A stretch of DNA of 64,000 nt from an uncultured Pseudomonadales bacterium (GTDB taxonomy: Bacteria > Patescibacteriota > Microgenomatia > UBA1400 > UBA1396): the NCBI GenBank assembly GCA_964511175.1, contig CAZEEI010000002.1:2063-66062 (forward strand), in the 5' to 3' direction. The number at the start of each line of letters is the position of its first letter. Position 1 is the first letter of the stretch. The notes under the pieces were generated by a model that worked only from the letters and a program-made list of their open reading frames with translations, was not told the DNA's origin and ran no database searches. The translations under genes were made by a program, and so were the position numbers. This document shows, piece by piece, positions 3,404-35,380 of this stretch.

Positions 3404-3762
3404 CTCGAACGTGTGCCTGGCTCGGGTCATGTGTCTAGCATTAATACGCGGGAAGCCAACAATCTCGGCTGTCACCTACACAATATTTTTGTTCCGCAAG
3501 CAGAATTGGTGGCATTGTCTCAGGGAGAAAGAATTGATGACGCTCTGGAAGCTGCAGTACATGGTCTTCCCAGCATGGTGAACCGCCGTAAAGAGCGGGG
3601 TTTGTTGCCAGCTAATAAGGCCGATCGGGCCTAATTGTTATTTCCGATCATCTCTGATCGACTTAGTTCCCTAAAGTGCGAGTTTACAGGTGGGGTTTCT
3701 TTTGGGTATCGTAGGGTTATTCGGGTAAGGTTCGCCGTAAAAAAGGCGGAAGGAGTAAAACT

Positions 3763-4383
3763 ATGGCCGTAACACTATATCGTCGGCAAAGGCAGATCGT
3801 TGACTTTATTGCGCAGTACATTCAACTTAACAATTATTCGCCGACTTTACAGGAAATTGCGGACGCCTTAGGTGTTTCTTCTTTAGCCACCGTGCACGAA
3901 CATTTGCAGGCTTTGGAGAAAAAAGGAGTGATCCGCCGGGCGGACGGCGCCATTCGCGGCATTGAGTTGCTAGACCGTACTTTCTTGAAAATTACCGAAG
4001 GGATCGATTTACCGATTTTGGGTTACGTGGCCGCCGGCCGCCCGATTGAACCCTACACTGATCCCAATGCTACTTTTAAGGTTTCACCCCAATTAATTTC
4101 CGGCAAACGCCGCGCCTATGTTTTGCAGGTCAAGGGTGATTCGATGATTGAAGATGGTATTTTGGAAAACGATTACGTAGTCATTGAGGAACGAGAAGAT
4201 GTACGCGATGGTGACATCGTGGTGGCTCTCCTCGACAATGGTTTGGCCACCCTTAAGCGTTTCTTTAAAGAAGCAACACGGATCCGTTTGGAGCCAGCTA
4301 ACTCCCGCATGCAGCCAATCTTTGCCACCAATGTTAAGATTCAAGGTCAATGTGTGGGACTAATCCGGAAGTTTGCTAATTGA
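3763..4383 (+). CDS. lexA: LexA repressor (S24 peptidase family)
   Basis: N-terminal winged HTH and a C-terminal S24 autopeptidase domain with the KGDSM serine motif and a downstream lysine (ALLDNGLATLKRF). A GGAGG ribosome-binding site precedes the ATG. Confidence 0.9.
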   Translation: MAVTLYRRQRQIVDFIAQYIQLNNYSPTLQEIADALGVSSLATVHEHLQALEKKGVIRRADGAIRGIELLDRTFLKITEGIDLPILGYVAAGRPIEPYTDPNATFKVSPQLISGKRRAYVLQVKGDSMIEDGILENDYVVIEEREDVRDGDIVVALLDNGLATLKRFFKEATRIRLEPANSRMQPIFATNVKIQGQCVGLIRKFAN

Positions 4384-5253
4384 GTGCAGTTTTAATTTTT
4401 TTAACCAAGTTAATTGCCGTTTAGCGTACTGTCTTTCTTGCTGAAACCAAAGTTCCTTGGCTTTAACCAGCGATATTTCTTGATTCAAATAACGGCATAA
4501 GAATTGGTAGCCAGTAGCGGAAAAGGCAGGCGTATTCCAATGGGGATAAGCAGTTATCAAGCGCTGGGTTTCCTCGAGTACACCCCGTTCGAGGCGCTGA
4601 TCAATGCGTTGCCTTAGGTTGGCCTCCAACTGGCTAGGTTCAACCGAATGCAAAATAAGTGAGTACTCATCTGGTTGGAAGAGTGGCGCAGGAACATTAA
4701 TCGGTTGATTAGCCGTTTCAATGGCGCGGATCAGCCGACGAGGATTATGTCGATCCGAATCATTTAATCTCGTGAATTTTTCGGGATTGAGTTGCTTTAA
4801 TTGGATTTGTAAAGAGGCTACATCCAGTAAGGCTAATTCTTGGCGTAACTTTTGATTAACTGGTTGGTAAAGAGTGGCCGGCGGGTCGATTAATACTTGG
4901 GCGTAAGGCCAAGCGCCACCAACCAGCACTAAGGGGTGCTGTTGATGACGGTGCTGTTCGATAATCGGCCGCGCCCAATCGTAGTAGTGACGGATCGAAA
5001 AAGCTTTATCCGGGTTAATGATATTCAGGCCGTAGAGGGCAGGCGCGGCCTTATTGGTTGGCGAACGCCAAACACCAGCCTGGTCTTGCTGGTAACTAGG
5101 AGGGATATCCTGACCGGTGCCAATGGCCATCCCGCGGTAAATTTGGCGCGAATCAAAAGATAGTATGTCCGCCTGTTTCTCCCGCGCTAAAACCAAAGCG
5201 CGGGTGGTTTTGCCGGTAGCTGTGGGGCCAAAAATGATCCAAGTGTGCCACAT
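4360..5253 (-). CDS. miaA: tRNA dimethylallyltransferase (MiaA)
   Basis: P-loop GPTATGKT near the N-terminus and the MiaA-typical ILSFDSRQIYRGMAIGTGQ region. Its 3' end overlaps the 3' end of lexA convergently by 24 bp. Confidence 0.9.
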   Translation of the reverse strand: MWHTWIIFGPTATGKTTRALVLAREKQADILSFDSRQIYRGMAIGTGQDIPPSYQQDQAGVWRSPTNKAAPALYGLNIINPDKAFSIRHYYDWARPIIEQHRHQQHPLVLVGGAWPYAQVLIDPPATLYQPVNQKLRQELALLDVASLQIQLKQLNPEKFTRLNDSDRHNPRRLIRAIETANQPINVPAPLFQPDEYSLILHSVEPSQLEANLRQRIDQRLERGVLEETQRLITAYPHWNTPAFSATGYQFLCRYLNQEISLVKAKELWFQQERQYAKRQLTWLKKLKLHSISKLPD

Positions 5254-10391: not shown

Positions 10392-11360
10392 ATGGCTTTT
10401 AAACCTGGCAGTATTATTCAAGACCGCTTTTTATTAACCGCCATGGAGCAACGTACTACCAAACAGGGCAAGAAGTTCTACACTTTGCAGTTAGCTCATC
10501 CGGAGGGCGCGATTGCCGGTACCATTTGGAGTGAGGCCATACCCCGCGTTAAAATCGTGCCGGATGCGGTGGTTTACTTGGAAGGCAAGATCGATAGTTA
10601 CAATGGCCGCACTTCGTTAGTGGTGGAGTCGGGTTACACTTTAGCCGACGCCGACCCGGCCGAGTTTTTAACCGCGGTTAAAACAACCCCGACGTTAATT
10701 TTTGATATTGAGACAGTGGGTATTCCTTTCGCTGACATTGCAGCCGAATCACAACGGTATCTACTGGAAAGACTGGAACGGGCGGAAACACCGACCGACC
10801 AAGAAGCCGCCAAACAGAAAACCGGTCTTTACCCCCTATTTGGTTACGTGGGAGCGATCGGTTTACTTGACACCCGGCAGAAAGGGACGGTTCTACTGCT
10901 GAATAAATCGGCCGTTACCATGGAAGACCAGCGTTTTAGTTGTGAAGTTTTTTCGACCGAGAAAGAATTATTAACCCGTTTTTGGGAAATCGCTGCTAAA
11001 TACCAACGTTTTGTTACTTACAATGGGCTCAGTTTTGATTGGCCTTTTTTAGTGTTTCGCTCTGGCGTTAACCGAGTTAAGGTATCGGTGCCGATCCGTC
11101 CCTGGAACAAAGATGAGAACAATTTGGATTTAGCCGTGGAAATTCCGCCTAGCCGGACAATGTATAAATTAAGTGAGGTGACCAAGGCAATGGGCTTGTC
11201 TAATCCCAAAGAGGCCGGGGTAAATGGCGGTGACGTGACCGCCCTTTTTGCGGCTGGTCAGCAGTCAGTGGTGGCTCAGTATGTGGCTCGCGATGTCAGT
11301 TCAACGGAACAATTATATGAGCTTTGGCGCACTTATTTGGCGGGACGTACGATTGTTTAG
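10392..11360 (+). CDS. Predicted 3'-5' exonuclease (DEDD/RNase H-like fold, PolB-exonuclease-like) with N-terminal OB fold
   Basis: The N-terminal ~100 aa look like an OB fold. It is followed by Exo I-like LIFDIETVGIP and Exo II-like YNGLSFDWPFL motifs, as in COG3298/YprB-type predicted exonucleases. Confidence 0.5.
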   Translation: MAFKPGSIIQDRFLLTAMEQRTTKQGKKFYTLQLAHPEGAIAGTIWSEAIPRVKIVPDAVVYLEGKIDSYNGRTSLVVESGYTLADADPAEFLTAVKTTPTLIFDIETVGIPFADIAAESQRYLLERLERAETPTDQEAAKQKTGLYPLFGYVGAIGLLDTRQKGTVLLLNKSAVTMEDQRFSCEVFSTEKELLTRFWEIAAKYQRFVTYNGLSFDWPFLVFRSGVNRVKVSVPIRPWNKDENNLDLAVEIPPSRTMYKLSEVTKAMGLSNPKEAGVNGGDVTALFAAGQQSVVAQYVARDVSSTEQLYELWRTYLAGRTIV

Positions 11361-11396: not shown

Positions 11397-12104
11397 ATGT
11401 TAGAAGAGCGTGATTTGACGTTTGGTTCGTCAGGTCGGTTGCGTAGCGGCTGGGGTAGTTTGGTTAATGACCGAGCTAGTTTTACACCCACCCCTCGTCG
11501 TCGCCATTCACGTCGCGGTTTATTAGGTGCGGTTTTAGTCGTTTTAGTGCTTGGTTTGGGTTTAGTGGCCGCCCTGTTGGCTAGCCAGACCAATTTAGAT
11601 CTACGTCAGTTCGCCTGGGGTGGAGTTAATTTAAACACTAGCCTTTTTCAGCAGCGCTGGCTGGGTCCCAATCTGCAGGAGGTCATAGCCCGAGCTCCGT
11701 CGCAAGCCGGGGTCAAGGAGGTTTTTCACCAGTTAACCCGTCTTTATTGGGATGCTGACGTAGTTAACATTTCTTTACCACAGTTTGATTTTAACGGTGT
11801 AGCGTTTAAGGCCTATGAACCCAGCCGGAACGTTACTTATATTTTTGCCCGTCTAAATAACGTGCCGTGGGTGGAGGGTAAATATCTGGCGCTTTGGCTG
11901 GAAGGTAACGATGGCAGCTGGCTTTATGCCGGTTCACCGGAGTACACCATCGAATCCGGAGTTCTAGTGGCCTATTTTACTTTCCCTCTGGAGGGCAAAG
12001 TCGATCAGTACCGTATTCTCCATATCACTAGCGATAAGACCCAGCGTTCTTCTTTACCGGGCGATGATTTATTAGCTATTGCGTTTGCGGAGGATCAGCC
12101 ATGA
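11397..12104 (+). CDS. Hypothetical membrane-anchored protein (235 aa), translationally coupled to the giant protein gene
   Basis: Single N-terminal TM anchor (LLGAVLVVLVLGLGLVAALLAS) then an extracytoplasmic domain. Its stop TGA overlaps the ATG of the next gene (ATGA at 12101-12104). Confidence 0.5.
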   Translation: MLEERDLTFGSSGRLRSGWGSLVNDRASFTPTPRRRHSRRGLLGAVLVVLVLGLGLVAALLASQTNLDLRQFAWGGVNLNTSLFQQRWLGPNLQEVIARAPSQAGVKEVFHQLTRLYWDADVVNISLPQFDFNGVAFKAYEPSRNVTYIFARLNNVPWVEGKYLALWLEGNDGSWLYAGSPEYTIESGVLVAYFTFPLEGKVDQYRILHITSDKTQRSSLPGDDLLAIAFAEDQP

Positions 12105-15100
12105 GTGTTTGGTCGTCGCTATACTATTGTGGTCGACGCTTGCTGTCAGTATCTTTGCTAATTGGTTTGCTGATATTAGGATCAGCCGGTATTGCTTGGG
12201 CTTGTGATAATGGCGTGCCGGAAGGTGGTGAGGCGCGCAATGCCGGCAACGGTTGTGCCTATCGTTGTGTTAATGGCGGTTGGGAGGGGCCGATTTGGTG
12301 TGATGGTCAAGGTAACGGTCAATTTCAGGGGGAAGCGGCGCGCAGTGAAGCCGACCGGCAAGTTCAGACTAATGCAGTGGCAGAGTCTTTAGCCGAAGCT
12401 GCTGCCCAACTAGCGCAACAGTCGCCTGAGGAAACTGCGCAACATGCTACTAACAATGCCAATCAGCGGGCGTTGGAAGCGATACGTCAGCAAGCGATGG
12501 TTGAATCTCAGCGGCAAGCGGCGGTGGCTAGCGGTGTTTCGGCGGCCGAAGCCGCGGCGCGGTCTTCGGCCGCATCGGCCAACGTATCCCAAGCAGCTGG
12601 TACTACTCAAGGATCTTCGTTGGTAGGCAGCGGCAATCTACTAGCCAATCAACTAGCTGCTTCCGGTTATGGTTCGCCGGAGCAGGCTTTGGCAGCGGCC
12701 GGCTTGTCTGGTTCCAACGTAGCTGGTGCGGCAGTCAGTCAGGCAGTTAATCCGGAGAGTCTAGGTGGATCGTGCGATCTCAACACCGGTGCGGCCGGCA
12801 GCCAAGGGGTGGGTGGCGTTTGCTGCCGGGGTGGAGTGGCGGAATGTGGAGCGGACACCAACGGAGCTTGTATGTCGACACTCGACCGTCCAGGTGTAGT
12901 GGGGGTTTGTGGGGCAGCCGGTAGTCAAGATATATCTGGTTTTTGTGGCGATAGTTTTTGTAACGGTGCCAACGAAAACGCTAACAGTTGTGAGGCTGAT
13001 TGTCGTAATGTTGCCGCCGGCCAATCCGGTAATGCTCTGTTTTTGAGGGAAGGTGGCAAGTGTGTATCTTGTCCATCCGGCAAAGAAAATTCTTGTGGTA
13101 CCTATGCTGAATGTTTACGGGGGGAGACTGATCAACCACTAGTCGAGGCAGTTACCTTAACGCCGGCGCAGCAGCGGCAAATGGATCAATTAACCAATCT
13201 GGCCGACCAGTGTCGCAACGCCATTTACTCTGAGGACGACATTAATGGATTTAAGTGCACTAATCGTTATTTGGAAAAATATAACGAAGTCGCTCAAACC
13301 GCAGACGGTAAAGTAGTAACGGCGCTTATCACCGAACGCCGTGAAGCCGAAAATCACATATATGATCTGGCTGCGAATCTTGCCGAACAGAATATCAATT
13401 GTGAACAGGCCATAAAAACAGGATCCAATTGTCTGATGAATCTTGAGGATTATGAACTAGGCTATGCTGATGCGCTGGCGAGATTTGCCAAATTATATCC
13501 GGAGAGGGCGGCGAAGGTAGAGAGCAATAGCAAAAACTATCAAACCTATTTGGACGAGGAAGCTGGACGAGCTTTGGACACGGCAAAAAACTTAGAACAG
13601 CGTTTTGAAGATTTAGCAACAGAGGTACAATCGCAGTGTAAGGGTGCAGGTTCTCTAGACGAAGTAACAAAGTGTGTCGACCGCAAACGCAACGTGGTAG
13701 AGGCAGCTTATCAAAATTACTCTGATCCGGAGAGTTCATTTTGTCAGCGTTTTCCTAAAAGTTGCGTGTCAGCTAAGGATATTGCATCCGAAGTCCAAGC
13801 GGTGAATGTCGACAATTTGTATCCTGAGGTGGAAGGTAAATATAAACCTGATGGTAGTAGGGTTTGCCGCAGAAATTTGGACAACCTTAATAATTGTGTA
13901 GCATCAATTCCTGGTCAGGTTGAGGTAACGCCGGGAAAGCCGGCCGAAACTAGCCCGGTTGTACCTCCAGAAATCCCTACCGCTCCGGTTGTCCCAACTG
14001 GACTGATTGCGCCCTCTGTTCCGGATGTTCCGAGTGGTAGTGTTCGTGATACTGGTTCAAGAGTTGGGCTTACTAGCGAACAGAAAGCAGCTATCGACGG
14101 CTCAACTGCGGAAACGGTAGCTCCCGCCACGATTCAAGGTTTTGCAATTGAAACGAGAGTAAACCAAGAAGGAGAATCCGAAAATATTTGCCCCGATAAC
14201 TTACCCGGTGGTTGTCACTGTGGTACTAGTGATATTATGTCTGGCATGGGTTGCCCTGCGGGTTCGACCCTAGGGCTTGAAACGTATCCTTGGCGTTGTC
14301 CCAGCCAACCAGAGGTATCGTATTGTCAATGTGATGGTAGGAATGTACTTCCTGATGGCAGTTGTCCCGCGGGATCGGCTTTCTCTGTTATATATGGTTC
14401 GTCAACCAACGAGCAAGAAGAAGCGATTAATGGCTCAGCGGTATCGTTAACCCCACCGGAGACAACGGCTGCTTCCTCTACTGTAGTGGGTGATAAATGT
14501 CCAGACACGTTGGATGGTAAAGAAGTAAAACGGTGTAATTGTGGAACGGGTGACGTTAAAGAGGCTATTGATTCAGGTGACTCTTGTCCGGATGGTTCGT
14601 CGCCTCAGGTAGTCTTGGCTAAGTCGACACCAGCTGACTCAACTACTGTGGTGGCATCATTTTCCCAAGAACAAGTGAATGCTTTTGGCGGGCAGGTGAT
14701 TAACGCACTGCGTAATGTGGGGCAAAATATTACTAATGCTTGGGCCGGTCTTTTTGGTTCGGTTACGGGTGGTACAACAAAACAAGATACTACTACAACG
14801 CAACCAACCACTTCTCAATCGACTAATGAAACAGATCAGTCCACCAGCGAAACAGAGTTCGAAACCAGGCCTGATGAGCAAGGTTGGGATGTTAATATTT
14901 GCCCAGCCGAAGCAGCTGATGGTTGTAATTGTGAGGGTCGTTATATTCGGCCGGGTCAGGAATGCCGGGTACATTTATCCCTAACGGTGTTAAGTAGTGA
15001 GACACCAGTTCAAACTTGTCCCACTAATGCTAATGTTCTCTACTGTGAATGTGACCTAACCACACGACAGCCGGGCGAGACTTGTCCGAGTACCGCCAAG

Positions 15101-16066
15101 TTTAACATTGTTAGGAGTCGGCAGAATGTGATTACTGATCTTACTGATGGTGTTAGGCGAGTAGCGGAACAAGTCTCTTACGCCGTTAATACTCTGGCTC
15201 GTCAGTATGCTGCTAGCCAACTACTTGGTTCGATACAGAATGCTTTGGGAAATATAATGGGTTCTTCCTCGAAGAGTACGACTGAAGTAGATCAAGTTAC
15301 TACCACAACGGAAACCGAAACCGCGCCGATAGCGGAATTGCCTGAAGGAAAAACAGCGGTAGAAGTTCGCAATACACCAATTTCTGGCAACCAGCTTTTA
15401 GATGGTGGTAAAGGATTAGGAAATGGTAGCACTCAAGATAACGGCAACTTTCAGCTTGAAGGATATTGCCAGGTCAAAAACACAGAAAACATGCAATATA
15501 CAGGGGCTATTTCTGATAATGCAGGTAATTGGTTTTGTACAAACGAAAGTGGGGCAAAAGTTCCGCTTACACCAACTGATATGGATGTAGTATGTGGTTT
15601 GACGTATAAAACTGGTGCAAATTTCAACTCAGATGCTGTTGCCGTATTTGTGCCGGGGTTAACTGGTACTCCTGCTTACAACTGGCGTTGCGGGAGCCGT
15701 AGCGGTTCACCGCCACCAATTGAGACATCAGTTGATGAGGCAACGCCAGTAAAAGATTCCCAACAGCCTGAACCCGTGCTTCTCATGAATGGAACTGGTT
15801 TATCGAACGACCAAAGTGTGACTAACGGCAAGATGCAGGTGGAAGGCTACTGCACTGATCAGGGATATGGTATTAAGCAAGACAATACGAATTGGTACTG
15901 TACCGATGCCCAAAATAATGCGGTAAAGACACTTACCTCTACAGATTTTAACCAAATCTGTCAAGAAACATACAACGATCCCAGTGCCTTTGCTGTACAA
16001 GACGGAGCAGATTCGGTTGCCGCTTACAACTGGAACTGTTACGGTTATAATGAGTCGTCACAATGA
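12101..16066 (+). CDS. Giant (1321 aa) secreted cysteine-rich repeat protein; candidate surface adhesin/glycoprotein
   Basis: Signal/anchor (LLSVSLLIGLLILGSAGIAWA) followed by an Ala/Gln/Ser low-complexity region, Cys-rich modules, P/T-rich and T/S-rich linkers, three copies of a CP..GC.C..(W)RCP..YC.CD..CP module and two tandem C-terminal ~90-aa repeats (EGYC...NW[FY]CT...AYNW.C). Uninterrupted 3966-nt ORF; its stop overlaps the ugd start (ATGA at 16063-16066). Confidence 0.8.
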   Translation: MSVWSSLYYCGRRLLSVSLLIGLLILGSAGIAWACDNGVPEGGEARNAGNGCAYRCVNGGWEGPIWCDGQGNGQFQGEAARSEADRQVQTNAVAESLAEAAAQLAQQSPEETAQHATNNANQRALEAIRQQAMVESQRQAAVASGVSAAEAAARSSAASANVSQAAGTTQGSSLVGSGNLLANQLAASGYGSPEQALAAAGLSGSNVAGAAVSQAVNPESLGGSCDLNTGAAGSQGVGGVCCRGGVAECGADTNGACMSTLDRPGVVGVCGAAGSQDISGFCGDSFCNGANENANSCEADCRNVAAGQSGNALFLREGGKCVSCPSGKENSCGTYAECLRGETDQPLVEAVTLTPAQQRQMDQLTNLADQCRNAIYSEDDINGFKCTNRYLEKYNEVAQTADGKVVTALITERREAENHIYDLAANLAEQNINCEQAIKTGSNCLMNLEDYELGYADALARFAKLYPERAAKVESNSKNYQTYLDEEAGRALDTAKNLEQRFEDLATEVQSQCKGAGSLDEVTKCVDRKRNVVEAAYQNYSDPESSFCQRFPKSCVSAKDIASEVQAVNVDNLYPEVEGKYKPDGSRVCRRNLDNLNNCVASIPGQVEVTPGKPAETSPVVPPEIPTAPVVPTGLIAPSVPDVPSGSVRDTGSRVGLTSEQKAAIDGSTAETVAPATIQGFAIETRVNQEGESENICPDNLPGGCHCGTSDIMSGMGCPAGSTLGLETYPWRCPSQPEVSYCQCDGRNVLPDGSCPAGSAFSVIYGSSTNEQEEAINGSAVSLTPPETTAASSTVVGDKCPDTLDGKEVKRCNCGTGDVKEAIDSGDSCPDGSSPQVVLAKSTPADSTTVVASFSQEQVNAFGGQVINALRNVGQNITNAWAGLFGSVTGGTTKQDTTTTQPTTSQSTNETDQSTSETEFETRPDEQGWDVNICPAEAADGCNCEGRYIRPGQECRVHLSLTVLSSETPVQTCPTNANVLYCECDLTTRQPGETCPSTAKFNIVRSRQNVITDLTDGVRRVAEQVSYAVNTLARQYAASQLLGSIQNALGNIMGSSSKSTTEVDQVTTTTETETAPIAELPEGKTAVEVRNTPISGNQLLDGGKGLGNGSTQDNGNFQLEGYCQVKNTENMQYTGAISDNAGNWFCTNESGAKVPLTPTDMDVVCGLTYKTGANFNSDAVAVFVPGLTGTPAYNWRCGSRSGSPPPIETSVDEATPVKDSQQPEPVLLMNGTGLSNDQSVTNGKMQVEGYCTDQGYGIKQDNTNWYCTDAQNNAVKTLTSTDFNQICQETYNDPSAFAVQDGADSVAAYNWNCYGYNESSQ

Positions 16067-22113: not shown

Positions 22114-22866
22114 ATGGCCGCGCCTTTTTTATCGGTAGTTATTCCCTCCTATAATGAGAAAACCAATTTGGCACGTGGGGTGCTGGATCGGGTAATCGAT
22201 TTTTTGCAGAAACAGTCTTATGGCTGGGAGGTGGTGCTTACTGATGATGGTTCAACGGATGGCACTGTGGCGGCGCTGCATAGTTTTGCCCACCAGCATC
22301 CAGAAGCGCGGGTAATCGAAAATGTACATCGCGGCAAAGGACCCACGGTGGCCGCCGGGATGTTGGCAGCGACTGGTCAGTATCGCTTATTTACTGATTT
22401 TGACCAATCTACCCCGATTGAAGATTTGGCCAGATTTATGCCGTTTATTCGTGATGGTTATGACGTCGTAATTGGTTCCCGCGCTGTACAGGGGGCGCAA
22501 CGAGCCAGTGAACCTCTCCATCGCCATTTGATGGGTAAGGTGTTCAATCTTTTAGTGCAAATGATTGCTGTTCCTGGTATCCACGACACCCAGTGCGGTT
22601 TTAAACTTTTTTCGGCGGTGGCCACGGAGAAATTATTTCCTAAAATGGTAATTTATGGTGGGAAAGAGCGGCAAGATGCTTTTACCGGTGCTTTTGACGT
22701 CGAGCTTTTGCTGTTGGCGCGCCGCGCTGGCTACCAAATTGCGGAGGTGCCAGTGCAGTGGCAACATAATGAAACCCAACGAGTGAGTCCAGTTAAGGAT
22801 TCACTGCGGATGTTTGGCGACATCATTAAAATCCGTTGGGCCGATTTGGCGAAGCGCTATCAATGA
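22114..22866 (+). CDS. GT2 glycosyltransferase (polyprenol-phosphate sugar synthase-like)
   Basis: LSVVIPSYNEKTNL...VVLTDDGSTDGT...DFDQSTP motifs; 250 aa soluble GT2. Confidence 0.8.
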   Translation: MAAPFLSVVIPSYNEKTNLARGVLDRVIDFLQKQSYGWEVVLTDDGSTDGTVAALHSFAHQHPEARVIENVHRGKGPTVAAGMLAATGQYRLFTDFDQSTPIEDLARFMPFIRDGYDVVIGSRAVQGAQRASEPLHRHLMGKVFNLLVQMIAVPGIHDTQCGFKLFSAVATEKLFPKMVIYGGKERQDAFTGAFDVELLLLARRAGYQIAEVPVQWQHNETQRVSPVKDSLRMFGDIIKIRWADLAKRYQ

Positions 22867-24059
22867 ACACACGGTATCGTTGGGGACTCGGTTTTTATTT
22901 TCTCACATTAGTGATTCTAGCCGCGTGGTCTTACGCTTTTACCGATCCTAACTTAATCATGTTGAACCAGCCCTGGTTTGTCGTCTGGCAAAATTATTGG
23001 TGGCAGATAGCGCAAAATGCAGGGTTATTAGGAGGTTTGTTTATCAGTTTAACTACGGTGATGGTGATTGGTTATCTCAATTTATGGCGAGCGCTGTCGG
23101 TTAAATCGATAAGACTAAAAAAGTTTATTCCTTGGTTAACGGCAATTGCAGTGATTTTGTCACTAGGTTATAACGCCTATTCGCACGATATTTTCAATTA
23201 CCTGTTTAACGCCAAAATGATTTGGCAGTACGGTGCCAACCCGCATGTGCAAGTGGCCCTTGATTTTGTCGGCGATCCCTGGCTGCGCTTTATGCATAAC
23301 GTGCACACACCAGCTCCCTACGGCTACGGTTGGACGGTTCTTTCGCTAGTTCCTTATGCCTTTAGTTTTGGTAAATTTCTTACTGCTTACCTAGCCATGA
23401 AGGGGTGGATGATAGTGGGCTGGGTCTGGTTATTGGGGGCAGTTTGGCAGTTAATCCGGTCGGATAAGTTGGATCATCCCGCTCAACGCTGGTTAGGGCT
23501 AGCCTTCCACCCTTTAGTGTTGATCGAAACCCTGCTTAATGGACACAACGATGTTTGGATGATGGCGCCAGCCTTGACGGCTTGGTACTTACTCAGTCAT
23601 CGCCGCCGCAGTGCTACTACTATTGGTTTAGTGATTGGTTTGATGGTGTTTTCGATTTCAATTAAGTTTGTGACAATCTTGTTGTTGCCGCTAATGTTAC
23701 TAACGTGGTGGCCGCTAAAATTGAGACCACAATTAGATTGGATAAGAGATCACTGGGCCGAAATAGCGACCTTATTATTAATATTACCGTTGTTAACGTC
23801 CCGCTCCCAACAATTTCATCCTTGGTATTTAATTTGGGCCCTATCCTTCCTGCCATTAACCCGGTGGCGCTGGTTGGAGTGGGGGGTAAGCGGATTATCG
23901 CTGAGTGCGTTGTATCGTTACTATCCGTGGATTCTTAATGATTTTCAATATACTGATCAAGTCGAGTTGCAAATGCGCCTGATCACCTGGAGCGGTTTAC
24001 TGTTGGGATTAGGCGGGTGGTTAATGGTTCGCTGGCAATATAATCGGAAACATCATTAG
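22863..24059 (+). CDS. Polytopic membrane protein (possible GT-C/DUF2029-like mannosyltransferase)
   Basis: At least 10 predicted TM helices with conserved loops (HNDVWMMAPAL, HPWYL). The ATG at 22863 overlaps the upstream stop (ATGA). Last gene of the plus-strand operon. Confidence 0.45.
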   Translation: MNTRYRWGLGFYFLTLVILAAWSYAFTDPNLIMLNQPWFVVWQNYWWQIAQNAGLLGGLFISLTTVMVIGYLNLWRALSVKSIRLKKFIPWLTAIAVILSLGYNAYSHDIFNYLFNAKMIWQYGANPHVQVALDFVGDPWLRFMHNVHTPAPYGYGWTVLSLVPYAFSFGKFLTAYLAMKGWMIVGWVWLLGAVWQLIRSDKLDHPAQRWLGLAFHPLVLIETLLNGHNDVWMMAPALTAWYLLSHRRRSATTIGLVIGLMVFSISIKFVTILLLPLMLLTWWPLKLRPQLDWIRDHWAEIATLLLILPLLTSRSQQFHPWYLIWALSFLPLTRWRWLEWGVSGLSLSALYRYYPWILNDFQYTDQVELQMRLITWSGLLLGLGGWLMVRWQYNRKHH

Positions 24060-24061
24060 TT

Positions 24062-25552
24062 TTAGTTGTTTTGCCGTACCCTGCTTAGTTCTCTAAAGAA
24101 AAAGGCATCTCCCTTGCCGGTATATTGGTATTGCAGAGTGTTGCCCTCAAGTGTGTTACCAATCCACAGCGCTCGCTGAGTCGACTTTGGATTAAACAGA
24201 ACACCGTTGATTGCATCGGCATATTCAGTCATATTCGACAAAGCACCTAATATTAAACACGTTACCAATGCCTTTTTTATATTTCCTTTGCTTGTTTTAA
24301 GAGCCAAGGGTACATAGGTAAAAATAACCAACCAAGGAATTACTGATACTCTCATTGAAAAATCATGACATAACCCATAATCCACCAATAAAATTATGGT
24401 CATAGTTACCGCAGCCGTAAGCATTAGTCCCTGATCAATCCTGCTCTGTATTGCTCCAGTTTTCCACACTACAGACCACAAGAGTCCAAATTCCAAAGTA
24501 ATAAACAATAGTAAAATCGCCCAATTATTTAAAAGCCAAGTTAAACCTCTAATCTTAGCTGCTGCTCCACCAGCAGTGCCAAGATCCATTGATAAAAAAT
24601 AGAGACTAGTTGGTATGGCAATCACTATTAAAGATAAAATATTGGGGACGCTAATAAATTTTTTAATCCGGAATTTTTCTAAAAGCAAAAGGCAGATAGC
24701 AAATGGCAAGAGACCGATAGCCACTAAAGGGGACCACAACAATAGCAGACAAGCGAATAAAATAAGTAATTTATAATTTGATTTTTTTAAAAGCGTTAGC
24801 GTCTCAAAGGTGGCAATCCAAGCGCAAATATAATGTTGAATCGACCAACGCCAAGCTGTTCCCATGGAATGATAATTGGCAATATGTTGTCCATTGCGTC
24901 CAGTTATATTAGCCCAATGGTCTAGGTGGACTAGAGGATCGGGCCAAGTACCCGTTGTTAGAACATAGCCGATAACGTCCATGCCGGCAAAAAACAAAAA
25001 TAAAAGAAAAGTTTTTAGGGTTGGCTTGCCGGTTGCCACCAACATCCAGAACACGCCCAAGCCAGCACCTAAGAAAGACCAGACAAGTAAAGTTGTTTCA
25101 CAAGCGCGGTAACTGCCTAAAACCTTACCAATTAGTGCAGCTGGTAAATAAAAGGCTACATAGTAATTTAATACCTGGTTTGAACCATCACTAGTCACCG
25201 CATTGTAAGAAACAGGCCAACTTTTCTCATACAAATCATGCAATACGGCATTATTTTTTGCCCAATCTCCTGTCTGTTTTCCGATAACCGCCCCAACCCC
25301 TGTCGCTAGCAATAAAGCTAAGATAATTCCCAGGATAATGAAAACTGTTGATTTTTCCAACGCGAATTTTTTAAAAGGAATTTTTTGGATTTCCTTACCA
25401 GTAAAATATAAAATTACGGTTAATCCTAGAGATAAGATTAGCGGGTAAATATTTTTTAGATTACCCAAATAAAAAATAAAATAAGGGATAATTAAATATA
25501 AAATCCCCAAAAACATCATTAATCGTTGTGATTTTTCTCCAAATACAAACAC
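24062..25552 (-). CDS. Polytopic membrane protein (O-antigen polymerase/ligase- or GT-C-like), AT-rich
   Basis: 496 aa with more than 10 TM helices and a visibly lower GC than its neighbours. Last gene of the minus-strand glycan operon. Confidence 0.45.
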   Translation of the reverse strand: MFVFGEKSQRLMMFLGILYLIIPYFIFYLGNLKNIYPLILSLGLTVILYFTGKEIQKIPFKKFALEKSTVFIILGIILALLLATGVGAVIGKQTGDWAKNNAVLHDLYEKSWPVSYNAVTSDGSNQVLNYYVAFYLPAALIGKVLGSYRACETTLLVWSFLGAGLGVFWMLVATGKPTLKTFLLFLFFAGMDVIGYVLTTGTWPDPLVHLDHWANITGRNGQHIANYHSMGTAWRWSIQHYICAWIATFETLTLLKKSNYKLLILFACLLLLWSPLVAIGLLPFAICLLLLEKFRIKKFISVPNILSLIVIAIPTSLYFLSMDLGTAGGAAAKIRGLTWLLNNWAILLLFITLEFGLLWSVVWKTGAIQSRIDQGLMLTAAVTMTIILLVDYGLCHDFSMRVSVIPWLVIFTYVPLALKTSKGNIKKALVTCLILGALSNMTEYADAINGVLFNPKSTQRALWIGNTLEGNTLQYQYTGKGDAFFFRELSRVRQNN

Positions 25553-25555
25553 TTC

Positions 25556-26506
25556 TTAATCCTCAAAATTAATTCTTTTCTCTTCAATAACCAATGGTCG
25601 CCTAATTACTCTGGAATTAATACTCAAAACATATTCTCCTAAGATGCCAATAAAAAATAATTGGACAGCGCCAAGAAAATAAACACCAATAGTAGCCGCT
25701 GCTGCCCCGGCATCAAAACTATACCAGTTAGTTATTTTTTGAAACAAAGTTATGGCGGCCACCATCAAACAGAGTAGGGATAGTCCAGCTCCGACAAAAG
25801 TGGCTATTCGCAGCAGCGTTTTGGAATAAGAAGTGATCCCCAACATTGCAAAATCATACATTTTCAAAAAATTAGCATAAGACTTACCATGTTCACGTTT
25901 ATTCTGTGTGTAATAAATTTTTTCAATACCGAATCCCATTTCCGCAATAATCCCGCGCAAATACGGAACAGGATCATCAATTTGCCGCAGAACTTCAATA
26001 AAAGATTTATCCAACAATTCATAATCCGTAAAATGCGCAATTTGTTCGACTTCGGACATGGTTTTCATTAGCTGGTAATAAATGCTTCGCACGAAATATA
26101 CCAGACCATTTTCTTTACTCTTATTTTTAATGCCAATGATAACTTTGCCTCCACTCTCCCACTTTTTTATAAACCGGGGAATGAGATTAGGTGGATTTTG
26201 CAAATCAGCATGAATGAGCATAATTGCATCACCGGTCATCTGGGTCAATCCATAAAAATGGGAACGAGAGTAACCAAAATTCCGGGCATTGAAGATGGCT
26301 TTTACCCGCCTATCTCGCGCGCACAATGTCTCAATTAATGTTCGAGTTTTATCACTAGAGCAATTATCAATAAAAACAAGTTCAAAATTATATTGAGGCA
26401 ATTTATTTTCCATCACTTTTATAACTTCGGTATAAACCAGTGAAACATTTCCCTCTTCATTATAAGTAGGAACAAGTATGGAAATAACTTTCTTTTTTTT
26501 CTTCAT
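25556..26506 (-). CDS. GT2 glycosyltransferase with C-terminal TM helices
   Basis: ISILVPTYNEEGNV...FIDNCSSDKT...HADLQNPP motifs, and two C-terminal TM helices as in polyprenol-phosphate GT2 enzymes. Confidence 0.8.
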   Translation of the reverse strand: MKKKKKVISILVPTYNEEGNVSLVYTEVIKVMENKLPQYNFELVFIDNCSSDKTRTLIETLCARDRRVKAIFNARNFGYSRSHFYGLTQMTGDAIMLIHADLQNPPNLIPRFIKKWESGGKVIIGIKNKSKENGLVYFVRSIYYQLMKTMSEVEQIAHFTDYELLDKSFIEVLRQIDDPVPYLRGIIAEMGFGIEKIYYTQNKREHGKSYANFLKMYDFAMLGITSYSKTLLRIATFVGAGLSLLCLMVAAITLFQKITNWYSFDAGAAAATIGVYFLGAVQLFFIGILGEYVLSINSRVIRRPLVIEEKRINFED

Positions 26507-26512
26507 TCTTTA

Positions 26513-27682
26513 TTAATCTATTTTTACTACTTTAGCAATTTCTAAGGCTCGTTCCAGTGCTTGGTCCATATTATAATACTTAAAGTCAGCCAAACGACCA
26601 CAATAATATAGATTAGGAATCTTGTCCGCTTGCTTTTGATAAGCTGCGTGCTGTTTTTGGCTTTCTTCAGTCAATAACGGATAATATGGTTCAAGTTTTT
26701 TGCCCTTTTTGTATGGTAGGGGATATTCCACTGCATAGGTAGAACCTTTTACTGCCTGTTTAGGTAATTTTTTATATTCGGTAATACGCGTATAACCCTT
26801 GGCTTGTGGATAAGCTACCACCGGCGCCGCTTGTATACTTTTCTTATTCTCATACTTCCATTCAAAACGTAGGGACCGATAAGGAAGACTGCCATGGTTA
26901 CAACCGAATAATTCATCCAGAGCGCCGGTATAGATTACGGGGCAGCTAATAGGTTGTTCTTCTCGCAATAACGTTTTTCCATCGGTAGATACGGATAGAT
27001 ATTTTAAAGCTTCTTTGCCAAGATTTAAGGTGATATTGGGATGATCTAATATTTTTTCGAAAAATGCAGTGTAGCTGACTTTTGGCATCATTTGGTATTG
27101 GTCATCAAAATAACCAACATCATAAGAAAAGCGCAGCGGTACACGTTTTAATATACTAGGATCAATCATTTTGGGTGAAACACCCCATTGTTTGGCGGCG
27201 TACAAACTATAGTCTTTCGCAAAAAGAAATTGGGCATAACCTTGTATTAGTGGATCTTCATTTTCTAATACTTCCATCACTGTAGCAGTTTGGCGCTTAC
27301 CGAATGCGGCTTGAATATGCGCCTTTAATTCCATTGCCTGTTCTAGTGGATAAAAATCATCAATAGTTTGAAAGTTAAATGGTGTTGGTGTGGTAATGCC
27401 ATCGATCTCTGCCAGGCAAATTAATTGATAATCTTGCCAGGCAATAAATCGTTTTAAGTAATTACATAGTGATCTGTTATTGGTATGAAATACGTGCGGG
27501 CCATATTTTTGCACCAAAATACCATGCTGATCAACATAGTCATACATATTGCCGCCAATGTGATTGCGGCGTTCCCAAACAACTACTTTTTTTCCTCTTT
27601 CCTCAGCCAGGTAACGCGCTATGACACTACCGACCAAACCGGAGCCAACAATAATTGCCTCAGAGTTATCCTTAATCAGCAC
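26513..27682 (-). CDS. glf: UDP-galactopyranose mutase
   Basis: FAD Rossmann IIVGSGLVGSVIARYLAEE plus the Glf-specific KVVVWERRNHIGGNMYD...GILVQKYGPHVFHTNN. Confidence 0.9.
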   Translation of the reverse strand: MLIKDNSEAIIVGSGLVGSVIARYLAEERGKKVVVWERRNHIGGNMYDYVDQHGILVQKYGPHVFHTNNRSLCNYLKRFIAWQDYQLICLAEIDGITTPTPFNFQTIDDFYPLEQAMELKAHIQAAFGKRQTATVMEVLENEDPLIQGYAQFLFAKDYSLYAAKQWGVSPKMIDPSILKRVPLRFSYDVGYFDDQYQMMPKVSYTAFFEKILDHPNITLNLGKEALKYLSVSTDGKTLLREEQPISCPVIYTGALDELFGCNHGSLPYRSLRFEWKYENKKSIQAAPVVAYPQAKGYTRITEYKKLPKQAVKGSTYAVEYPLPYKKGKKLEPYYPLLTEESQKQHAAYQKQADKIPNLYYCGRLADFKYYNMDQALERALEIAKVVKID

Positions 27683-28602
27683 GATGATTTTTCCAATTTT
27701 ACTCTATTGATCACATCTCTGATGCCGTTTTCAAAAGATATTTTTGGCACAAAACCAGTATCTTCTTGTAACGCTGAAAGATCGATACAAGAACTAGGTA
27801 GTCGGTTGTCAACATAAGGAATTTCACCAATACCAAGCGGCAACATGGGGTTAATTAAATCCTTAATGATGCCAATATATTGGTTCAATGGTTGATTGTC
27901 CCCGTGCCCAATGGCATAAAAACGCCCAGTTTTTCCTTTTTTACCTATTAGATATAACGCCTCAATCAAGTCGTCGATGTGGATATAATCCCATTTTTGT
28001 TCCAGTTTGGTAAGTGATGGTTTTTTACCATCTAAAAGTTGATCAATAGTGTAAAAAATAACATTATTATCACGTCTGTCAGCGGCATAAATACCAGTTG
28101 TCACAACGTAGATAAAACCTACTTTTAATTGTCTAGCCAACTCTTCACAGAGGAATCTAGTAGCAATTTTGACGCTACCGTAAGCATTCTGCGCTGAAGG
28201 TATAGCGTTTTCATTAATTGGTTTACTGTAGTACAGATATTCACTGGTTGATCCAGGCAAAATAAATTTTTTAACGCCTGCCATAGCTGCGAAGCGGATA
28301 CAGTTTAAACTCAGTGGAATATTTTCTATCTGCAAATCAAAATCATTGCGACAATCTGGATTCACACCCTGCCATGCTAAGTGATACATCACGTCCGCTT
28401 TTTTAGGAAAATCCGCCAAATGTGACTGTAATTCACTTAATTCGCATTCAACGATATGGATTTTCGGCAAATCAGCCAGACGGTTTTTAGAAGTATTATG
28501 GGAAGTAACATTGGCCCATACTTCGACACCCGCATCAACCAACTGATGTATTAAATGAGAGCCAATAAACCCGCTTGCACCCGTAATAATTGCGCGCTTC
28601 AT
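27676..28602 (-). CDS. NAD-dependent epimerase/dehydratase (possibly CDP-6-deoxyhexose epimerase/reductase)
   Basis: MKRAIITGASGFIGSHLIHQL Rossmann motif and a YxxxK (YGSVK). It lies next to the CDP-glucose 4,6-dehydratase gene. Confidence 0.75.
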   Translation of the reverse strand: MKRAIITGASGFIGSHLIHQLVDAGVEVWANVTSHNTSKNRLADLPKIHIVECELSELQSHLADFPKKADVMYHLAWQGVNPDCRNDFDLQIENIPLSLNCIRFAAMAGVKKFILPGSTSEYLYYSKPINENAIPSAQNAYGSVKIATRFLCEELARQLKVGFIYVVTTGIYAADRRDNNVIFYTIDQLLDGKKPSLTKLEQKWDYIHIDDLIEALYLIGKKGKTGRFYAIGHGDNQPLNQYIGIIKDLINPMLPLGIGEIPYVDNRLPSSCIDLSALQEDTGFVPKISFENGIRDVINRVKLEKSSC

Positions 28603-28605
28603 ATT

Positions 28606-29688
28606 TTACTTCAGATACTCCTCAATTTGTTGATTCGTCAATTGAATAATCTCTCCAGAAGGGTATTTATTCAGCAATGCTTTGCTCCACTCCACCGTTT
28701 TATCAACGGCCTGATCAATATGCCAAAGGGGATGCCAATTAAAAACTTTTTTTATCCGGGAACAATCCAATTTTAGGAAATTTGCCTCATGTGGAGCATT
28801 TTTTATTGATATATTTTTCCACTTTGCTGGTTTACCCCAATGAGCGCAAAAAAGATCAACTAATTCTTTGGTAGAGATACAATCTTCATCGTCAGGACCG
28901 ATGTTGTAATTTTCCTCATACACTCCTGGTTGTCCGCATTGTCGACTTGCTATTAACAAATAAGCACAGATTGGTTCCAGAACATGCTGCCAGGGCCGCG
29001 TTGAGTTGGGATTACGCACAATGATAGTTTTTTTTCTTTCCATAGCCCGAACACAATCGGGAATAAGGCGATCCGAGGAAAAATCGCCGCCACCAATCAC
29101 ATTTCCTGCCCGACACGTGGCGATTGCCACTTTACTATCGGCAAAGAAAGCATGGCGGTAAGAAGATGTTACCAATTCGGAACATGATTTGGAATTAGAA
29201 TATGGATCATAACCATTTAAACGATCAGTTTCGCGGTATCCCCACGCCCACTCTTCATTCAAGTAGACTTTATCGGTGGTGACATTAATTACTGACTGAA
29301 CAGAAGGGCAGGAGCGTACAGCTTCTAATAGGTTGACTGTACCCATCACGTTAGTGGCATAAGTCTGTACTGGATCACGATATGATTCACGTACGAGCGG
29401 CTGAGCTGCCATATGGATAACAATTTCGGGTTTAGCTCTGCGCATTGTTTGGCGCAAGTGCTCTAAGTCCCTGATGTCACCGATTACCGAGTTTATTTGT
29501 TTAGTCAAACCAAGCATGGTAAAAAGATTAGGATTAGTTGGCGGTTTTAGTGCATACCCAGTGACTTTGCCTCCAAGACCAACGAGAACCTGGCACATCC
29601 AACTCCCTTTAAAACCGGTATGCCCCGTAATAAATATTCTTTTTCCTTGGTAAGTTGAGAGATCCATTATTTGGTCCACTTCATCCAT
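28606..29688 (-). CDS. rfbG: CDP-glucose 4,6-dehydratase
   Basis: GKRIFITGHTGFKGSWMCQVL is the characteristic RfbG/DdhB N-terminus; 360 aa. Confidence 0.88.
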   Translation of the reverse strand: MDEVDQIMDLSTYQGKRIFITGHTGFKGSWMCQVLVGLGGKVTGYALKPPTNPNLFTMLGLTKQINSVIGDIRDLEHLRQTMRRAKPEIVIHMAAQPLVRESYRDPVQTYATNVMGTVNLLEAVRSCPSVQSVINVTTDKVYLNEEWAWGYRETDRLNGYDPYSNSKSCSELVTSSYRHAFFADSKVAIATCRAGNVIGGGDFSSDRLIPDCVRAMERKKTIIVRNPNSTRPWQHVLEPICAYLLIASRQCGQPGVYEENYNIGPDDEDCISTKELVDLFCAHWGKPAKWKNISIKNAPHEANFLKLDCSRIKKVFNWHPLWHIDQAVDKTVEWSKALLNKYPSGEIIQLTNQQIEEYLK

Positions 29689-30446
29689 GGCGCTTCACCT
29701 TTTTGGATCAGCTCGTCCAAATATAACTTGTCCCTCAGAGTATCCATGCACTGCCAAAAACCGCTATGTTTATAAGCCATTAATTGGCCTTCCTGCGATA
29801 GACGCTCTAGTGGCGTTTTTTCTAAAACAGTATCATCCGCTTCGATATAATCAAATATTTGTGGTTCCAATACCATAAATCCACCATTAATCCAGCCGCC
29901 GTCCTCTTTTCTCTTTTCCGCAAAGCTATGAATCCGAGAATGCTCTGCTATATCCAACATGCCAAAGCGGCCACCCGGTTGTATAGCCGTTAATGTGGCT
30001 AACCTTTTATTTTTTCGATGAAACGCTAACAAGTTTTTGATATTAAGATCGCTTATGCCATCACCGTAAGTCAACATAAAAGACTTATCGCCAATATAAT
30101 TTTGGATGCGTTTAACCCGCCCGCCTGTCATAGAGTTTAAGCCAGTATCCACAATCGTTATCTTCCAAGGTTCGGCAACATTGTTGTGTACGGTTATTTT
30201 GCCGCCCTGAGAAAAATCGAATGTAATGTCGGAGCGATGTAAATAGTAATCCGCAAAATACTCTTTAATGAAATGTTGTTTATATCCAGCGCAAATAATA
30301 AAATCGTTAAAACCATAATACGAATAAAGCTTCATGATATGCCACAATATGGGTTGATCACCAATTTCAATCATTGGTTTTGGTTTTAAGTGGCTCTCCT
30401 CAATAATGCGGGCACCAAAACCACCAGCTAAAATTACAACTTTCAT
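29667..30446 (-). CDS. rfbF: Glucose-1-phosphate cytidylyltransferase
   Basis: MKVVILAGGFGARIIEESHLKPKPMIEIGDQPILWHIMKLY matches RfbF/DdhA. The true start is MKVVILAGG (30446). Confidence 0.88.
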   Translation of the reverse strand: MKVVILAGGFGARIIEESHLKPKPMIEIGDQPILWHIMKLYSYYGFNDFIICAGYKQHFIKEYFADYYLHRSDITFDFSQGGKITVHNNVAEPWKITIVDTGLNSMTGGRVKRIQNYIGDKSFMLTYGDGISDLNIKNLLAFHRKNKRLATLTAIQPGGRFGMLDIAEHSRIHSFAEKRKEDGGWINGGFMVLEPQIFDYIEADDTVLEKTPLERLSQEGQLMAYKHSGFWQCMDTLRDKLYLDELIQKGEAPWMKWTK

Positions 30447-34462: not shown

Positions 34463-34875
34463 GGGGATGCATCGACTTGACGGAAAATGCTCGTGAACAT
34501 CGGCGCGTCGGTTGGCCCACGTTAAGGGTCAAAACAACAAAATTGTCAATACTTTTGACAAAGCCGTTGCCAAGGTTAAGTCTACTTTTAACGAAGTAGC
34601 TATGGCCTTCTTCGGTACTGGTGAGCTCGCTACTTTAAAAATAGCGTAACACTGGTCATTCATTCGTTCGGTTTCAGATACGCCGGCGGATGGGTGAAAA
34701 CCTAGTATCTGTTCAAGACATAGCGGTTTGGCCGCCGCTGGTCCCACGTTTAAGGGTCAGCGCGAGACAGGGTTCGGTTAGTCTTTCCCTTCTCGTCCGA
34801 GCTAAGGCTAAATTACACGCGTAGATGATGTTGACTTGGTTTTTCGGACTCGGGTTCATTACCCGACATCTCCAC
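34463..34875 (+). ncRNA. ssrA: tmRNA (transfer-messenger RNA, SsrA)
   Basis: 5' GGGGATGCATCGACTTGACGG aligns with the canonical tmRNA 5' end (GGGGCUGAUUCUGGAUUCGACGGG). The 3' end TTTTTCGGACTCGGGTTCATTACCCGACATCTCCAC aligns with the canonical T-arm/acceptor (UUUCGGACGCGGGUUCAACUCCCGCCAGCUCCA). The acceptor stem GGGGATG/CATCTCC carries a G3:U70 pair, the alanine identity element. An internal tag reading frame ends ...GAGCTCGCTACTTTAAAAATAGCGTAA (stop at 34647-34649). CCA is not fully encoded. Confidence 0.85.
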
Positions 34876-34876
34876 T

Positions 34877-35380
34877 TTACGGCAAGCCGGCGGCCAGGTG
34901 CTGTCGGCTTTTTTGGAGTCGGTAACGAAAATCTGGATCACGCCAAAGTCGATGAATGGGAGGATCTCCCTGAACCAGGTTCCAGCAACTAACGGTGAAG
35001 TTACGTAATTCTTGATTAGATTGATAATAGGGTGCCGTTGCTTCTAAACCGAAAATAATTTGACAACGCAGGCCACTCACTACTTTTTGAATAAATTCGA
35101 TGGTGGGGTTAGTTTGCAGCGTTTCTAATCGTGAAATATCAGGTTGAGATAGACCGATTCTTTGAGCCAGTGCGGCTTGGGTTAAGCCTTGTCCGATTCG
35201 CTGCCGCCGGATTTGTTGAGTGATTTGCCACTTTAGATCGCTAAAACGGAGTTCATAGAGGATTTGTTCATATTCTTGTACCTGCTCAAGGCGATGGCCA
35301 TATCGCGAACGTGGTTTACCACGTAGAGGGGAAGTGTGTCGTTTTAACATAGCCCCATTTATAGCGTGAAAAACATACAC
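34877..35380 (-). CDS. XRE-family helix-turn-helix transcriptional regulator
   Basis: HTH_XRE-like segment LTQAALAQRIGLSQPDISRLETLQTNPTIEFIQKVVSGL. The stop lies 2 nt from the tmRNA 3' end. Confidence 0.55.
   Translation of the reverse strand: MYVFHAINGAMLKRHTSPLRGKPRSRYGHRLEQVQEYEQILYELRFSDLKWQITQQIRRQRIGQGLTQAALAQRIGLSQPDISRLETLQTNPTIEFIQKVVSGLRCQIIFGLEATAPYYQSNQELRNFTVSCWNLVQGDPPIHRLWRDPDFRYRLQKSRQHLAAGLP
34885..34914 (+). terminator. Putative intrinsic terminator downstream of ssrA
   Basis: AGCCGG...CCGGCT inverted repeat followed by TTTTTT. It sits on the strand opposite the last codons of the XRE gene. Confidence 0.35.

Follow-up and report, generated by a model that had tools for sequence, protein, structure and literature searches.

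A 64,000-nucleotide (nt) stretch of contig CAZEEI010000002.1 (hereafter the window) carries, at 12101..16066 on the plus strand, an open reading frame (ORF) for a giant protein of 1321 amino acids (aa) containing 57 Cys (4.3%). We read its product, at slightly better than even odds (about 0.55), as a Sec-secreted modular surface protein in which a conserved base carries, on a stalk stapled by disulfides, a binding tip that can be swapped, the whole acting as an adhesin. The observations behind this reading are the repeats within the protein, the family membership of its parts, their extracytoplasmic placement, the taxonomic spread of the tip, and distal halves that vary between orthologues. 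The general design, in which a modular surface protein has a variable tip for binding, is known; the parts from which this protein is built and its cross-phylum tip are new.

The ORF lies exactly where an earlier, sequence-only reading of the window had placed it, and every peptide quoted in that reading is found in its translation at the place given. A protein identical to its product is encoded on a 201-kb NCBI contig and also on a contig assembled independently by Logan. The most informative facts had escaped the earlier reading: the positional orthologues of the protein have unrelated distal halves, and its tip is typical of Chloroflexota/Anaerolineae in a window that looks patescibacterial. 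All features of the giant gene given below are on the plus strand.

Repeat architecture of the giant protein

Two kinds of repeat had been noticed in the translation, a Cys module present three times with its middle copy truncated and a tandem duplication of the C-terminal ~180 aa. The basic Cys element is a single 4-Cys unit, C-P-x(6-11)-C-x-C-x(10-15)-C-P, present in five copies arranged 2+1+2, with a short conserved E-T-R/T strand before each module. Module 1 (aa 681-764; 14141..14392) has a short ETR strand ahead of its two units (Cys 697/705/707/718 and 733/742/744/755), and module 3 (aa 918-1004; 14852..15112) is built in the same way (Cys 934/942/944/955 and 973/982/984/995). The threefold recurrence therefore stands, but module 2 (aa 785-838; 14453..14614) is not truncated: it is one complete unit (Cys 800/812/814/829) with two small insertions.

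The repeats were scored by Smith-Waterman alignment (BLOSUM62) against 1000 composition-preserving shuffles, a procedure that keeps the Cys content. Module 1 (aa 689-770) aligns with module 3 (aa 926-1010) at a score of 120 (z = 16.5) and with the middle module at z = 8.5, and the two C-terminal copies align with each other at a score of 134, compared with 31.6 ± 5.6 for the shuffles (z = 18.2); in each of these comparisons, 0/1000 shuffles reached the observed score. The halves within modules 1 and 3 show a weak mutual likeness (z = 4.9 and 4.3), and module 3 compared directly with module 2 is below significance (z = 0.6). A tiled self-BLASTP of the giant protein detected the Cys modules at E = 4e-10 and the C-terminal pair at 4e-8, both repeats reaching ~30-40 aa further upstream than the Cys positions suggest, into linker-like sequence. 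Scanned with the spacing pattern of the unit, the window protein shows 4 occurrences, against ~0.01 expected per shuffled protein.

With its 4.3% Cys, its long biased linkers, and a module pair (3 versus 2) that is not significant, the protein might be thought to owe its repeats to composition or chance in a Cys-rich low-complexity sequence, without modular meaning. We give this virtually no credence. It is refuted by the shuffle test, in which the repeats lie far above all 1000 shuffles (z = 16-18) rather than below significance, by the unit-pattern scan, and by the 153 relatives of the C-terminal domain, the predicted fold of which is confident (see below).

An AlphaFold2 model of aa 677-775, built from an alignment of 3 rows, consists entirely of beta hairpins (predicted local distance difference test (pLDDT) 73.8), and Foldseek finds no match for it in the PDB at E <= 0.001. 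With four Cys each in a secreted setting and hairpins in the model, the five units may act as disulfide-stapled spacers, the giant protein presumably forming disulfides. Short Cys-held beta-hairpin units in series between linkers, with a C-x-C motif, recall EGF-like and other small disulfide-rich matrix modules, but the units have four Cys rather than six, match no Pfam family at E <= 10, find no Foldseek match, and occur in a bacterial context. An EGF-like identity was rejected, both the six-Cys pattern and a Pfam EGF match being absent, and no EGF-like or lectin match was obtained for the modules with Pfam or with Foldseek against the PDB. The view that neither kind of module is a named domain is borne out, as no match was found in Pfam (the spurious LTXXQ aside), NCBIfam, PDB sequences, or by Foldseek against the PDB. 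The giant protein as a whole has no NCBIfam match, no PDB-chain match by phmmer, and, against Pfam-A at E <= 10, a single spurious match (LTXXQ, 8 bits).

The C-terminal pair and its family

The C-terminal pair is formed by copy 1 (aa 1099-1199; 15395..15697; Cys 1123/1146/1165/1197) and copy 2 (aa 1227-1316; 15779..16048; Cys 1251/1267/1287/1313), both of which are recognized by a hidden Markov model (HMM) of the family described below (domain E = 1.7e-15 and 1.3e-29, respectively). Copy 2 is canonical; copy 1, the range of which includes an LL..G.GL lead-in, is a divergent copy with two insertions. The pair is thus real, as had been claimed, but its members are two divergent representatives of a family rather than the products of a recent duplication in place. 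They are ~38% identical to each other, whereas copy 2 is 63% identical to a copy in an Anaerolineae metagenome-assembled genome (MAG; locus L002) and 61% identical to copies in proteins P0034 and P0047. The best identity of copy 1 to any outside copy is 52%, and at the DNA level the repeat between the two copies amounts to merely 31 nt at 77% identity. The low mutual identity, the closeness of copy 2 to outside copies, and the scant DNA repeat together argue against recent duplication; the pair is accordingly either old or acquired as a pair. Nothing in the base composition of the tip points to its recent transfer: its third-position guanine-plus-cytosine content (GC3) of 0.37 is like that of the rest of the variable part.

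Copy 2 was modeled by AlphaFold2 from an alignment of 56 sequences (pLDDT 90.6; predicted template modeling score 0.78). The model is alpha/beta, with the order strand, helix, three strands, helix, two strands. No solved structure matches it as assessed by Foldseek against the PDB (best E = 0.55, template modeling (TM) score < 0.34), no viral model in BFVD matches it at E <= 0.001, and the best result of a PDB profile search with the domain alignment is a chance match to an endolysin (E = 0.22). In the model, the order beta-alpha-beta-beta comes twice, with N-W-x-C at the end of each half; examined for internal twofold symmetry by hhalign, the domain yielded only a 7-column motif (probability 6%).

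When aa 680-1321 were searched exhaustively by phmmer against 1.84 billion representatives of clusters at 50% identity, 153 proteins matched at E <= 1e-3, of which 120 did so at E <= 1e-10; almost all match the last ~90 aa alone. A word-indexed protein search with the domain alignment gave 2 matches. Using a local HMM, we found the domain in 149 other proteins in 1-4 copies each, and 22 of 150 proteins have 2-4 copies, two-copy proteins being common. The modules had been called novel, which holds insofar as they are unnamed; with 153 clusters at 50% identity for the tip domain, and a 4-Cys pattern that recurs outside the window protein (see below), they are not confined to it. In the family alignment (A2), columns C13, C29, C49, A60, W73, and C75 are invariant and W27 is nearly so; both window copies have the four invariant Cys, W73 of the W-x-C motif, and W27. 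The LL..G.GL lead-in is common to family members.

In 112 of 150 proteins scanned, the window protein included, a hydrophobic segment (N-terminal signal or membrane helix) precedes the domain, a placement assessed by a simple hydrophobicity scan rather than a dedicated predictor; the window protein has one such segment, N-terminal, ahead of the domain. The partners of the domain are varied. An SH3_3 domain is found in 33 of 102 proteins, always separate and ~40-55 aa upstream; a Ser/Thr kinase domain (Pkinase) followed by a membrane helix is found in 18 proteins; and PD40/WD40 propellers, VWA, and PPC domains also occur. The multi-copy carriers P0014 and P0021, which have several copies of the domain and nothing else, match no Pfam family. 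That the domain might itself be SH3_3 (PF08239) was rejected, the SH3_3 matches lying upstream of the domain in its carriers and never over it, with none in the window protein.

We read the domain as a binder because it is portable, extracytoplasmic, often in tandem, found beside SH3_3, and present on kinase ectodomains, all of which suggests a tip of the binding or attachment kind. The earlier proposal that distal disulfide-rich modules are binding domains is thereby made plausible, while ligand binding by the tip itself is inferred, by analogy. Used in this way, the family recalls established wall-binding and sensor modules such as SH3b and PASTA. The PASTA domains of PknB-type kinases and penicillin-binding proteins are ~70-aa extracellular alpha+beta modules, often in tandem, that bind muropeptides. 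The tip domain resembles them in size, in occurring in tandem copies, and in being placed at the extracytoplasmic C terminus, among others of Ser/Thr kinases, where a membrane helix comes before it. It differs in having four conserved Cys and in matching neither PASTA in Pfam nor any PDB structure by Foldseek, and a PASTA identity was rejected for want of either match (Foldseek best E = 0.55, TM score < 0.34); the analogy is one of function only.

The position of the domain allows a different reading, in which it is a C-terminal sorting or secretion signal comparable to the C-terminal domain of type IX secretion: a machinery for export or attachment would recognize it and might then cleave it off. 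The domain ends <=5 aa from the C terminus in 89 of the 149 carriers and is attached to cargo of many kinds, as such a signal would be. In 47 of the 149, however, it ends >20 aa from the end, and the multi-copy proteins counted above do not have the single terminal copy of a type IX sorting domain. The predicted fold is alpha/beta with four conserved Cys and not a beta-sandwich, there is no hydrophobic tail, NCBIfam sorting-domain models do not match, and no genes for a dedicated machinery were seen adjoining the giant gene. We therefore rejected a type IX sorting domain and consider a sorting signal of any such kind very unlikely.

In a species survey, one genome per species was scanned with patterns (alignment A3), followed by tblastn. 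It gave 29 loci, all in Chloroflexota and mostly in genomes named Anaerolineae or subgroups thereof (Aggregatilineales, Phototrophicaceae, Anaerolineaceae), several genomes holding two loci. The survey is biased by the patterns used, one of which matches the window's own copy, and no other phylum appeared in it. A scan of viral contigs with the tip domain found nothing. At six Chloroflexota MAG loci (L012, L014, L021, L022, L025, and L026, at ~3600-4560 in each), we observed a conserved protein of ~295-315 aa with little beyond two copies of the domain, which may be an ancestral or core carrier.

Measured against this Chloroflexota/Anaerolineae family, the window protein is alike in that both of its copies match the HMM and have the four Cys, the W-x-C motifs, and the LL..G.GL lead-in. 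It differs in that it and, as judged by serine hydroxymethyltransferase (SHMT; see below), its source organism are patescibacterial, in that Cys-unit modules precede the domain in place of SH3_3, propellers, or kinases, and in the two insertions of copy 1. The tip domain defines a sizeable unnamed family of Chloroflexota extracytoplasmic modules that is apparently shared across phyla.

Two other giant secreted proteins end in the same 4-Cys domain, P0129 (1017 aa, 54 Cys; locus L037, 8001-11054) and P0024 (1499 aa, 98 Cys; locus L039, 1363-5862). P0129 also shares the helical lead-in and has weak CCxGG..EC and CD..GNG.F motifs; its contig has a GC content of 39% and closely packed housekeeping genes, among them LepA, SmpB, and Cmk, and looks like that of a member of the candidate phyla radiation. 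Asp/Asn-rich ends, dockerin-like by eye only, were noticed in P0132 (aa ~170-197) and P0119 (aa ~535-564), both of them small proteins that carry the domain.

A conserved N-terminal part with unrelated distal halves

The giant protein has 11 relatives (P0002-P0012) of 776-1842 aa, all Cys-rich, which align with it by BLASTP at 37-48% identity, all of them over aa ~10-270 and the closest up to aa ~600. No relative was found when species-representative genomes were scanned with the whole giant protein, and a scan of metagenome contigs with it found nothing. The tip domain is absent from all 11 relatives. The protein begins with a predicted signal peptide (aa 1-34; 12101..12202), identified by sequence reading and a hydrophobicity scan, with a hydrophobic core at aa 13-33 and A-W-A directly ahead of Cys35, an invariant residue that in the relatives likewise comes right after A-x-A or a similar motif; cleavage would probably occur at this point. 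No hydrophobic segment follows aa 33 in the same simple scan. The conserved region that defines the family (aa 35-270; 12203..12910), delimited by alignment to all 11 relatives, contains a 4-Cys knot (CD..G..RN.GNGC.Y.C...W.GP..CDG.GNGQ.Q), an Ala/Gln-rich helical stretch, and a CCRGG..EC motif. The N-terminal family alignment has 64 invariant columns and gave no match in a PDB profile search. Next comes a Cys-paired, largely helical middle region (aa 271-600; 12911..13900) that, judged by BLASTP extents, is common only to the closer relatives P0002, P0003, P0004, and P0007, and then a linker rich in Pro, Thr, Ser, and Val (aa 601-680; 13901..14140), recognized by composition and sequence. Within the gene (12101-16063), the conserved N-terminal part has a GC3 of 0.47 and the variable distal two-thirds a lower one of 0.32-0.39; in the flanking genes it is 0.47-0.51. 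The drop is consistent with the variable part having had another history or being under weaker selection on codons.

The pattern of the 4-Cys unit occurs 8 times in 6 of the 11 relatives, once or twice in each, compared with ~0.01-0.04 expected per shuffled protein. In these proteins the unit is detectable solely by its spacing pattern as tested against shuffles, an HMM of the five units matching none of the relatives besides the window protein itself. None of the 149 other carriers of the tip domain shows the pattern, and within the family only the window protein has five units. Since the pattern exceeds the shuffle expectation in relatives, the unit is best viewed as a building block of this protein family that has been amplified here.

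The neighborhoods of two relatives, P0012 and P0009, were compared with that of the giant gene. All three share the order DivIC, XerC-type recombinase, tRNA_bind, FtsH, 5'-3' exonuclease, a 235-243-aa membrane protein, and the giant gene, followed downstream by UDP-glucose dehydrogenase, epimerases, GT2/GtrA, and PMT_2. The distal halves of P0012 and P0009 are unrelated to that of the window protein. The same gene order and homologous partner genes identify these two as positional orthologues with unrelated distal halves. The window protein is thus like the family in its signal peptide, aa 35-270, partner gene, neighborhood, and unit pattern, but stands alone in having five units and Anaerolineae-type terminal domains. 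In P0002, the otherwise unrelated C-terminal part contains, at aa ~1660-1670, an HExxH motif (LIDHELVHS), which may mark a metalloprotease-like tip.

The partner gene (11397..12104, plus strand, from the ORF list) encodes a protein of 235 aa that has one membrane helix and matches no Pfam family; the stop of the gene and the start of the giant ORF overlap by 4 nt. It also precedes the orthologues in loci L031 and L032, where the 4-nt overlap recurs and the partner proteins are homologous (Smith-Waterman z = 51 and 64). The membrane protein, coupled in translation to the giant ORF by this overlap, is a candidate partner or anchor. Between the 5'-3' exonuclease gene and this cassette, the window has a further gene (10392-11360), for a 322-aa protein with RNase_H_2 and PolB-exonuclease-like domains, that is absent at that position in L031 and L032.

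A conserved head with variable tails is also the layout of a polymorphic effector, in which the N-terminal part would serve delivery or trafficking and the variable C-terminal halves would be alternative toxins or enzymes directed at competitors or hosts; the HExxH motif (IDHELVHS) near the C terminus of P0002 could be cited in its favor. No enzyme or toxin domain was detected in the window protein with Pfam, NCBIfam, or PDB sequences, though, and its tail is made up of small Cys units together with a domain found in other proteins beside sensors and propellers. Moreover, the gene downstream is a conserved UDP-glucose dehydrogenase at all three loci and not a variable immunity gene. With neither a toxin family nor an adjacent immunity gene, a polymorphic toxin system was rejected, and effectors of this design in general seem to us highly improbable.

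Source organism and surroundings of the giant gene

The best named matches of the SHMT encoded in the window are to Candidatus Woesebacteria (74%) and Candidatus Pacebacteria (66 and 65%), followed by "Patescibacteria group" (64%), Candidatus Beckwithbacteria (64%), and one alphaproteobacterial label (63%). A small genome would be in keeping with the tight packing of the housekeeping genes and with the contig of one orthologue, which is 699 kb long. On SHMT as the single marker, the organism is probably a Microgenomatia-like member of the Patescibacteria.

A cluster of envelope-glycan genes lies downstream of the giant gene, at 16-39 kb. It includes UDP-glucose dehydrogenase, GDP-mannose dehydratase, UDP-galactopyranose mutase, UbiA-type and GT4 transferases, several GT2, PMT_2, and YfhO. 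That the giant gene adjoins this large cluster counts in favor of the adhesin reading, but it also bears on a reading in which the protein is turned around. In that reading the C-terminal domains bind the wall glycopolymer of the producer, as SLH, LysM, and CWB2 domains do, and the N-terminal part is the exposed functional end. A location directly upstream of a large envelope-glycan biosynthesis cluster would suit such self-anchoring, and in Chloroflexota the domain sits at the C terminus of many unrelated exoproteins, often with SH3_3, as a common anchor module would. Yet P0009, P0012, and all other relatives manage without it, which means that it is not the general anchor of the family; conserved ends are more often cell-proximal; and the domain is also present on proteins that are already held by a membrane helix, such as the kinases. 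We consider self-anchoring through the C-terminal domains unlikely.

Within the glycan cluster, a low-GC island at 24000-30000 (GC 0.38-0.41, against 0.46-0.51 around it, with reversed GC skew) carries on the minus strand genes for GT2, UDP-galactopyranose mutase, two epimerases/dehydratases, and a nucleotidyl transferase, and may be a variable or acquired part of the cluster. A full-length transfer-messenger RNA gene (34463-34877, 77 bits) adjoins a 512-aa ORF without a Pfam match (32886-34424), and four tRNA genes are found at 39.7-46.8 kb. Other large ORFs without a Pfam family at the thresholds used are at 59239-61584 (781 aa), 24062-25552 (496 aa), and 22836-24059 (407 aa).

Discussion

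In the adhesin reading that we favor, the giant protein would be exported via Sec, and its conserved N-terminal ~250-600 aa would form a base that ties it to the envelope of the producer, the coupled 235-aa membrane protein possibly joining in the anchoring. The remainder would project outward and be evolutionarily replaceable. In the window protein, this projecting part would comprise Pro/Thr/Ser-rich linkers, the five 4-Cys beta-hairpin units as stapled spacers, and two tip domains of ~75 aa, which would bind their ligand with avidity. The ligand would most likely be a glycopolymer of a cell envelope or matrix.

Several points weigh against this reading. Anchoring through the N-terminal base is purely inferential, and the giant protein has no recognizable wall-anchor motif. 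The model of the Cys module is only moderately confident (see above), the taxonomic placement of the window uses SHMT as its single marker, and the window's own genome was not among the species representatives scanned.

A patescibacterial surface protein with a domain typical of Anaerolineae leads to the idea that the tip recognizes Anaerolineae cells. The protein would then be a host-recognition device, in which a Microgenomatia-like episymbiont has captured, or shares, an Anaerolineae envelope-binding domain and uses two copies of it on a stapled stalk to grip Anaerolineae filaments, the exchanged halves of the orthologues being determinants of host range. A co-occurrence study of wastewater plants links Microgenomatia genera with Anaerolineae genera (PMC10943839), which makes the idea plausible without testing it. 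Two results weaken it: the samples with the closest relatives of the domain (P0014 and P0015) differ from the sample of the window (run SRR8925802) and so provide no evidence of co-occurrence for this organism, and base composition is without sign of recent transfer. The ligand could equally be a common matrix polysaccharide. We thus put forward host recognition as a tentative possibility that is on balance doubtful.

Should the domain bind wall or matrix in an ordinary way, the result would still be useful as annotation but would not be surprising. The tip family numbers 153 clusters at 50% identity, and Foldseek finds no solved structure resembling its confidently predicted fold; it deserves to be formally defined and to have its ligand identified. 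How the ultra-small Patescibacteria recognize their hosts and stay attached to them is largely obscure, and their hosts are not predictable from genomes. The locus described here, a syntenic surface-protein gene with a conserved base, a tip that is swapped between species, and in the window a tip characteristic of one potential host group, offers a concrete and testable handle on this question. If the host-recognition reading is true, tip domains would predict hosts for uncultured Patescibacteria.

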